Positions 24,128-24,155 of a DNA stretch of 64,000 nucleotides are shown here, piece by piece. Source of the DNA: an uncultured Lentisphaerales bacterium. Its GTDB lineage: Bacteria > Verrucomicrobiota > Lentisphaeria > JABSQK01 > UBA12247. The notes beneath the pieces were generated by a model. It was not told where the DNA came from and did no database searches. It was given only the letters and a program-made list of their open reading frames with translations. How positions within the stretch are numbered: the first letter of the stretch is position 1; each line of letters starts with the position of its first letter. Location: assembly GCA_943788985.1 (NCBI GenBank), contig CALSSJ010000013.1:21521-85520 (forward strand). The letters are read 5' to 3'. Both the position numbers and the translations under genes were made by a program.

Positions 24128-24155
24128 ATTAAACATAACATATATTATGCGACGT
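24128..24155 (-). other. dif-like XerC/XerD recombination site
   Basis: Minus strand ACGTCGCATAA-TATATG-TTATGTTTAAT vs E. coli dif GGTGCGCATAA-TGTATA-TTATGTTAAAT (XerD arm 10/11); AT-rich intergenic location; KOPS polarity switches here. Confidence 0.8.

Follow-up and report, generated by a model that had tools for sequence, protein, structure and literature searches.

A probable chromosomal dif site with converging KOPS-type octamers in an uncultured Lentisphaerales bacterium

The locus considered here raises two linked questions, namely whether a 28-bp dif-like sequence in a 64,000-nucleotide stretch of DNA from an uncultured Lentisphaerales bacterium (the window) is the dif site of the chromosome, and whether the octamers GGGNAGGG that surround it are the signal by which FtsK finds its way there. 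We consider it very probable that 24128-24155 is the chromosomal dif and that XerCD resolution takes place there, guided by FtsK reading GGGNAGGG, as in the textbook system. In such a system the two 11-bp arms would be occupied by XerC and XerD, which would resolve chromosome dimers at division through strand exchange within the 6-bp centre. GGGNAGGG, lying on the leading strand of both replichores, would point at dif; the gamma winged-helix domains of septal FtsK would load on it in one orientation, on the model of E. coli, P. aeruginosa and V. cholerae, and FtsK would then pump DNA toward dif from either side and activate XerD on arrival. Binding and recombination by the Xer proteins, recognition of GGGNAGGG by FtsK gamma and directional loading are thus expected from homologous systems. 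The site, its uniqueness, the position of the switch, the polarity of the octamer, conservation across the phylum and the three proteins are supported directly.

The original prediction had placed a dif-like site at 24128-24155, and these coordinates are right. The plus strand of this segment reads ATTAAACATAACATATATTATGCGACGT and has the dif architecture, with two 11-bp arms in partial dyad symmetry around a 6-bp centre (Table 1). This is the same 28-bp, 11 + 6 + 11 layout as in the XerCD/dif and FtsK-KOPS system of E. coli, which also operates in V. cholerae and P. aeruginosa. In E. coli, dif reads GGTGCGCATAA-TGTATA-TTATGTTAAAT, and its inner arm bases CGCATAA and TTATGTT are identical here; the arms differ at 5 of 22 positions, the outer bases of the XerC arm being ACGT here and GGTG in E. 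coli, and the central hexamer differs as well. When the assembly was searched with E. coli dif, 24128-24155 was its top match, with no other locus within 8 mismatches. A position matrix was also built from 22 dif sites found in relatives, leaving 24128-24155 out. On this matrix, whose maximum is 53.1 bits, the site scores 49.9 bits and the next unrelated locus in the genome 12.4 bits. The dif copy number is therefore one across the 4.58-Mb, 48-contig assembly, which is estimated to be 83.6% complete, and a second dif or a second replicon may lie in the missing part. The 23 phylum sites together give the consensus ACGTCGCATAA-TATATN-TTATGTNTAAT, which 24128-24155 fits and in which GTCGCATAA of the XerC arm is kept.

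Table 1. Coordinates of dif, its parts and the surrounding GGGNAGGG copies in the window
Feature	Position	Strand	Description
28-bp dif site	24128..24155	-	canonical minus-strand orientation ACGTCGCATAA-TATATG-TTATGTTTAAT
Presumed XerD-binding arm	24128..24138	-	TTATGTTTAAT; assigned by analogy with E. coli arm TTATGTTAAAT, from which 1 position differs
6-bp central region, probable strand-exchange region	24139..24144	-	TATATG; TATATN in most of 23 phylum sites
Presumed XerC-binding arm	24145..24155	-	ACGTCGCATAA; inner 7 bases CGCATAA as in E. coli
Left replichore end	2633..22842	+	eleven GGGNAGGG copies on + strand, one opposite
GGGNAGGG copies left of dif	starts 2633, 4685, 6782, 7591, 11737, 14292, 18988, 19283, 19409, 21765, 22835	+	
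Opposite GGGNAGGG copy left of dif	start 12477		
Right replichore end	25138..61116	-	ten GGGNAGGG copies on - strand, two opposite
GGGNAGGG copies right of dif	starts 25138, 26305, 30560, 31060, 36037, 36668, 41597, 51607, 52501, 61109	-	
Opposite GGGNAGGG copies right of dif	starts 34016, 34473		
Innermost converging GGGNAGGG pair	22835..25145	22835 on +, 25138 on -	maximum-likelihood switch interval, 2.3 kb, encloses dif
Small element	34332..34614		34-nt terminal inverted repeats (88% complementary); carries wrongly oriented motif 34473

Exhaustive counting showed a strong strand bias of GGGNAGGG around the site. The octamer occurs 24 times in the window, compared with 9.5 +/- 2.9 times in dinucleotide shuffles, none of 100 of which reached 24. 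Left of dif there are 11 copies on the plus strand and 1 on the minus strand, and right of it 2 and 10, with 21 of the 24 directed toward dif. Across the whole 105-kb contig the counts are 18 plus and 1 minus on the left and 3 plus and 13 minus on the right. The maximum-likelihood position of the switch falls between the innermost converging pair, as had been claimed from a list made by eye, and 31 of the 35 motifs on the contig are concordant with it. All copies on that list are real, but it was not complete, having missed four on the plus strand (2633, 6782, 7591 and 19409) and two on the minus strand (36037 and 52501). Likewise, the two exceptions named in it, 12477 and 34473, stand, and there is a third at 34016. 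The earlier list was thus incomplete but unbiased, and the picture is unchanged. The exception at 34473 does lie inside a MITE-like element with terminal inverted repeats (Table 1), which is compatible with a recent insertion in arbitrary orientation and does not itself belong to the dif/KOPS system; the exception at 34016 is 316 bp upstream of the same element.

Cumulative GC skew switches at dif together with GGGNAGGG polarity, both in the convergent sense. Its maximum is at about 26-27 kb in the window (47-49 kb of the contig), in line with the reported turn of the plus strand from G-rich to C-rich at around 24-27 kb. This maximum is 2-3 kb to the right of dif, which is within noise (the origin side could not be assigned to this scaffold). 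In an assembly of this kind one may ask whether the convergence is an artefact, created by joining contigs from opposite replichores at an AT-rich repeat, the more so as this is a draft, metagenome-type assembly that shows several noisy skew turnovers. We give this almost no credence. The window comes uninterrupted and without Ns from a single contig (C13:21521-85520), in agreement with the original prediction that it is contiguous and not concatenated, and the same architecture, with dif at the switch, is seen in at least 20 independent genomes that include complete chromosomes.

Two other places, both with a weak GC-skew turnover, were considered as the terminus and rejected. Contig C30 at about 75 kb has neither a convergent motif switch nor a dif-like site, and contig C29 at about 33 kb has only 5 motifs and again no dif-like site. 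No better dif match exists at a skew switch elsewhere in the assembly. A switch of the opposite, divergent sense (minus to plus), as would be found at an origin, accompanies a GC-skew minimum on contig C10 at about 140-190 kb; xerD, at 200 kb of this contig, is some 15-60 kb away. An origin beside dnaA was expected, but dnaA maps to C2:3456-4856, on a different contig from this clearest of the divergent switches. Contig C10 also carries, at 90-98 kb, a block of six motifs of opposite polarity; an inversion or an island may account for it.

The immediate surroundings of dif are housekeeping and not mobile. The 381-bp gap that holds it is flanked by hemA (22642-23898) and an open reading frame without annotation (24280-25134), after which comes mutL (25150-26988). 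These neighbors bear on the idea that the 28-mer is the remnant attachment site of an Xer element, or a chance AT-rich palindrome, and that the true dif is in the unassembled 16% of the genome. Relatives do have secondary dif-like sites away from the motif convergence (G038:C1:114330, and arrays in G002, G084 and G030), and the assembly is incomplete. Nevertheless we find this idea very improbable given the hemA and mutL setting, the near-maximal score on a matrix to which the site made no contribution, and its location exactly at the motif switch of the contig and near the GC-skew switch; moreover, the vicinity holds no further dif-like site, and the 28-mer is not repeated in the assembly. 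A chromosomal dif remains the preferred reading.

We then asked how far GGGNAGGG is special among G-rich words. Octamers with one free position were ranked by their observed leading-strand excess relative to that expected from base composition. In a genome set of 2.37 Mb, made up of contigs with monotonic GC skew and oriented by that skew, GGGNAGGG ranks first of 47,790 words (300 leading and 69 lagging; 0.81 versus 0.63 expected), the best exact octamer being GGGCAGGG (141/29). When dif is used to orient the contig, it again comes first, among 20,864 words (31/4). The genome-wide value of 0.81 on this draft is below the skew of 0.91 reported for E. coli KOPS (PMC3384302), a difference to which the wrong orientation of some contigs, caused by noisy GC skew, may have contributed. 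Among the 56 words of this genome that consist of six G, one A and one N, GGGNAGGG leads in skew as well as in leading-strand count, and the family pooled reaches 0.71. Over the data sets, words of the same composition pool at 0.70-0.73, compared with 0.92-0.96 for GGGNAGGG.

A substitution scan over 23 pooled dif flanks (1.9 Mb), in which GGGNAGGG counts 342/25 (0.93), defines the code base by base. Substitution at position 1, 3, 5, 6, 7 or 8 lowers polarity to 0.56-0.77, which is the G-rich background, and position 4 is free, all four bases giving 0.86-0.98. At position 2, A is tolerated in part; the resulting GAGNAGGG, at 0.84, is the closest variant to GGGNAGGG. The scan recovers the KOPS consensus of E. 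coli, shifted slightly toward the SRS of B. subtilis. Composition-expected skew, the same-composition family and the substitution scan together rule out G-richness alone as the cause of the polarity. The E. coli-type code that had been proposed for this lineage is therefore specific, in that polarity is much lower in words of the same composition and in most variants with one base changed, GAGNAGGG alone being close.

It could still be that dif is real and that the polarity of GGGNAGGG is not read by FtsK, being instead a by-product of strand composition or codon bias, or serving another leading-strand role such as that of Chi-like signals for RecBCD or AddAB. G-rich octamers in general are 70-73% on the leading strand in these genomes, and Chi-type signals are likewise polar on the leading strand. 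E. coli Chi (GCTGGTGG) is not skewed above background here, nor does the Lactococcus heptamer GAAGAAG show any skew in these genomes (0.48-0.54). However, substitutions at six of the seven fixed positions fall to the G-rich background, and the free position 4 matches the experimentally defined degeneracy of KOPS. Moreover, GGGNAGGG is the most polar octamer, first of some 47,000 words, in four independent data sets. We thus judge this alternative unlikely, and return below to two further points that bear on it, the course of the switch in relatives and the FtsK residues. Guidance by FtsK reading GGGNAGGG is the reading that we follow.

The relatives that come closest by FtsK (best identity 65-67%) are all metagenome genomes of Lentisphaeria or Victivallales. 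This class belongs to the PVC group, in agreement with the original assignment to a PVC lineage. The pattern TCGCATAA-N6-TTATGTTTAAT, with at most 2 mismatches, is found in 26 of the 41 genomes searched from this order or class, usually as one match, and a looser dif pattern in 48 of 81 genomes across the GTDB phylum; controls were near 0 in both searches. We analyzed 40-80 kb on each side of 13 dif sites in the class and of 10 in seven other families. Around 12 Lentisphaeria sites GGGNAGGG points 152 times toward dif and 7 times away, ranking first of 47,615 words and also first in the high-GC and low-GC subsets taken separately. Around the 10 sites from the 7 other Verrucomicrobiota families the counts are 159 toward and 14 away, again first, of 46,722. 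The proposed E. coli-type KOPS code is hence borne out by first rank both in this genome and around 22 validated dif sites in relatives.

Individual relatives can be very clear; for example, the counts are 15/0 left of dif and 0/14 right of it in G042, and 13/1 and 0/20 in G003. Of the 13 relatives that have 3 or more motifs on both sides, 11 have dif within a switch interval of 1.6-8.6 kb, and in the remaining 2 it is outside this interval by 42 bp and 2 kb. At three sites (G038_b, G108 and G019) motif polarity tracks dif although local GC skew has the opposite sign. That the switch stays within a few kb of dif, and follows dif against the sign of the local GC skew, is evidence against a by-product of strand composition.

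Several relatives show additional features around dif-like sequences. The single contig of G038 has two sites with perfect dif arms and different central hexamers, about 746 kb apart (C1:114330-114354 and 5097423-5097447). The latter is at a KOPS convergence (8/1 left, 0/10 right). The former, with no switch (0 plus and 13 minus on its left, 1 plus and 5 minus on its right), serves as a negative control. G031 consists of two contigs of 2.73 and 2.40 Mb, and G028, from the same genus, of 2.81 and 2.65 Mb; on all four contigs a separate dif coincides with a change in the sign of the GC skew, and two FtsK-gamma paralogues are encoded by each of the genomes, which suggests Lentisphaeria with two large replicons. 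In G002 (OZ245791.1, a Victivallales MAG chromosome) a tandem array adjoins dif, running from 3078668 to the record end and over 1-20000. It holds at least 5 tandem units of 3,821 bp, 99-100% identical, each of which begins with a degenerate dif-like site, ACTTAACATAATGTATGATATGC. The units have a GC content of 34.7% (38.7% in the flank), lack KOPS and encode a protein of 333 aa that matches Rep_trans weakly (27 bits, under the cut-off), so that the array looks like a tandem Xer-integrated rolling-circle element. Small contigs of G084, G030 and G109 carry multiple dif-like sites that share unusual centres (e.g., CGCATAATATCCTTTATGT and CGCATAATACCGGGTATGTGAAAT), some of them paired at a distance of about 100 bp, and these are candidates for further Xer-exploiting elements.

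The genes expected for such a system, xerC, xerD and ftsK, were sought in the assembly. XerD (C10:200301-201173) passes its cut-off of 329.6 bits with a score of 338. The second recombinase (C17:117668-118591) is XerC-like: its best model is XerC, and the score of 315 bits falls short of the 335 set for the NCBIfam XerC equivalog but exceeds the 279 set for the subfamily. In both proteins the catalytic R...K...HxxR...H...Y can be read. FtsK (C36:110714-113275) has a C-terminal gamma winged helix, as in E. coli. This domain matches PF09397 at 82.4 bits (cut-off 30.6) and can be aligned with gamma structures from P. aeruginosa and E. coli (2VE8, 2J5O and 2J5P).

In E. coli, FtsK recognizes KOPS with the help of R1300, E1303 and E1306, and a mutant with alanine at all three is blind to KOPS (PMC2680272); we took the roles of gamma residues from this study and from PMC3384302. 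The recognition segment here is GYNRAATMIEELE, in which the equivalents of R1300, E1303 and E1306 are T, E and E. The remainder of the recognition helix GYNRAAxxIE..E, with E1303 and E1306 included, is conserved. Among 73 FtsK proteins of Lentisphaeria, the amino acids seen at position 1300 are L, E, T, N, D, S, I and M; most of the other Verrucomicrobiota sampled, where the polar motif is the same, have Arg there. Since the motif is the same in Arg and non-Arg groups, recognition in Lentisphaeria would not depend on R1300; and since the R1300 equivalent is T here and varies within Lentisphaeria, recognition would not be identical in detail to that of E. coli. Judged by the protein sequences, this replacement is the one real departure from the E. 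coli model system. The loss of an Arg that contributes to KOPS recognition in E. coli is a point in favor of a polarity not read by FtsK, and the otherwise conserved recognition helix, both glutamates included, is a point against it.

Compared with known systems, the one predicted here is most like that of E. coli. Both have a single site at the replichore junction and the octamer consensus GGGNAGGG with position 4 free and GGGCAGGG as its commonest form. Motif density is higher, with about 1 per 6.9 kb here and 1 per 12.6 kb in E. coli. B. subtilis has a dif served by CodV/RipX, and its SpoIIIE/SftA recognize the SRS GAGAAGGG, also a G-rich polar octamer, which differs from KOPS at position 2. 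The SRS-like GAGNAGGG has partial polarity in our genomes and never outranks GGGNAGGG, and unlike in B. subtilis, GGG at positions 1-3 is clearly preferred. The difSL/XerS system of Lactococcus and Streptococcus, with its heptamer, follows the same logic of an FtsK guide motif converging on an Xer site, but that heptamer is unskewed here and there are two recombinases instead of a single XerS.

Parts of this picture have been examined previously. Kono et al. (2011) predicted dif, at the points where GC skew shifts, for all 3 Verrucomicrobia and all 14 Chlamydiae in their set, with failure in one Planctomycete; their set included no Lentisphaerae and the identity of KOPS was not analyzed (PMC3025954). 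XerCD/dif thus exists in PVC bacteria. A 2026 survey describes GGGNAGGG polarity that inverts at dif on a panel of chromosomes and large extrachromosomal replicons; among the species it names are alpha-proteobacteria and Deinococcus radiodurans, the latter without a clear pattern (PMC13342612). We found no literature that links KOPS or architecture-imparting sequences to Verrucomicrobia or Lentisphaerae. Therefore, the dif/KOPS system is of a known kind, in a lineage for which we found no description, and will not surprise specialists; the identity of the KOPS code across the phylum appears to be a modest comparative result, unreported so far.

It is quite possible, though short of probable in our assessment, that FtsK follows exactly the KOPS consensus of E. 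coli, G-(G>A)-G-N-A-G-G-G, throughout the GTDB phylum Verrucomicrobiota, Lentisphaeria included, over a GC range of 39-65%, and that this code has been kept despite repeated replacement of R1300 in Lentisphaeria. If true, the code would either predate the split between Proteobacteria and the PVC group or be a strongly preferred solution, and R1300 would not be the determinant of KOPS specificity. The same motif specificity from gamma-proteobacteria to Verrucomicrobiota, combined with the variation at R1300, would offer a natural variant set for the reading of GGGNAGGG by gamma. On a practical level, dif fixes the replichore junction on a draft genome, and because KOPS polarity gives each contig a direction toward the terminus, it aids scaffolding and contig orientation. 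A validated dif consensus also reveals elements in relatives that look Xer-integrated. The cell-division apparatus of PVC bacteria is otherwise regarded as divergent. In this PVC lineage the FtsK-XerCD-dif machinery and its guide motif would nevertheless be intact.
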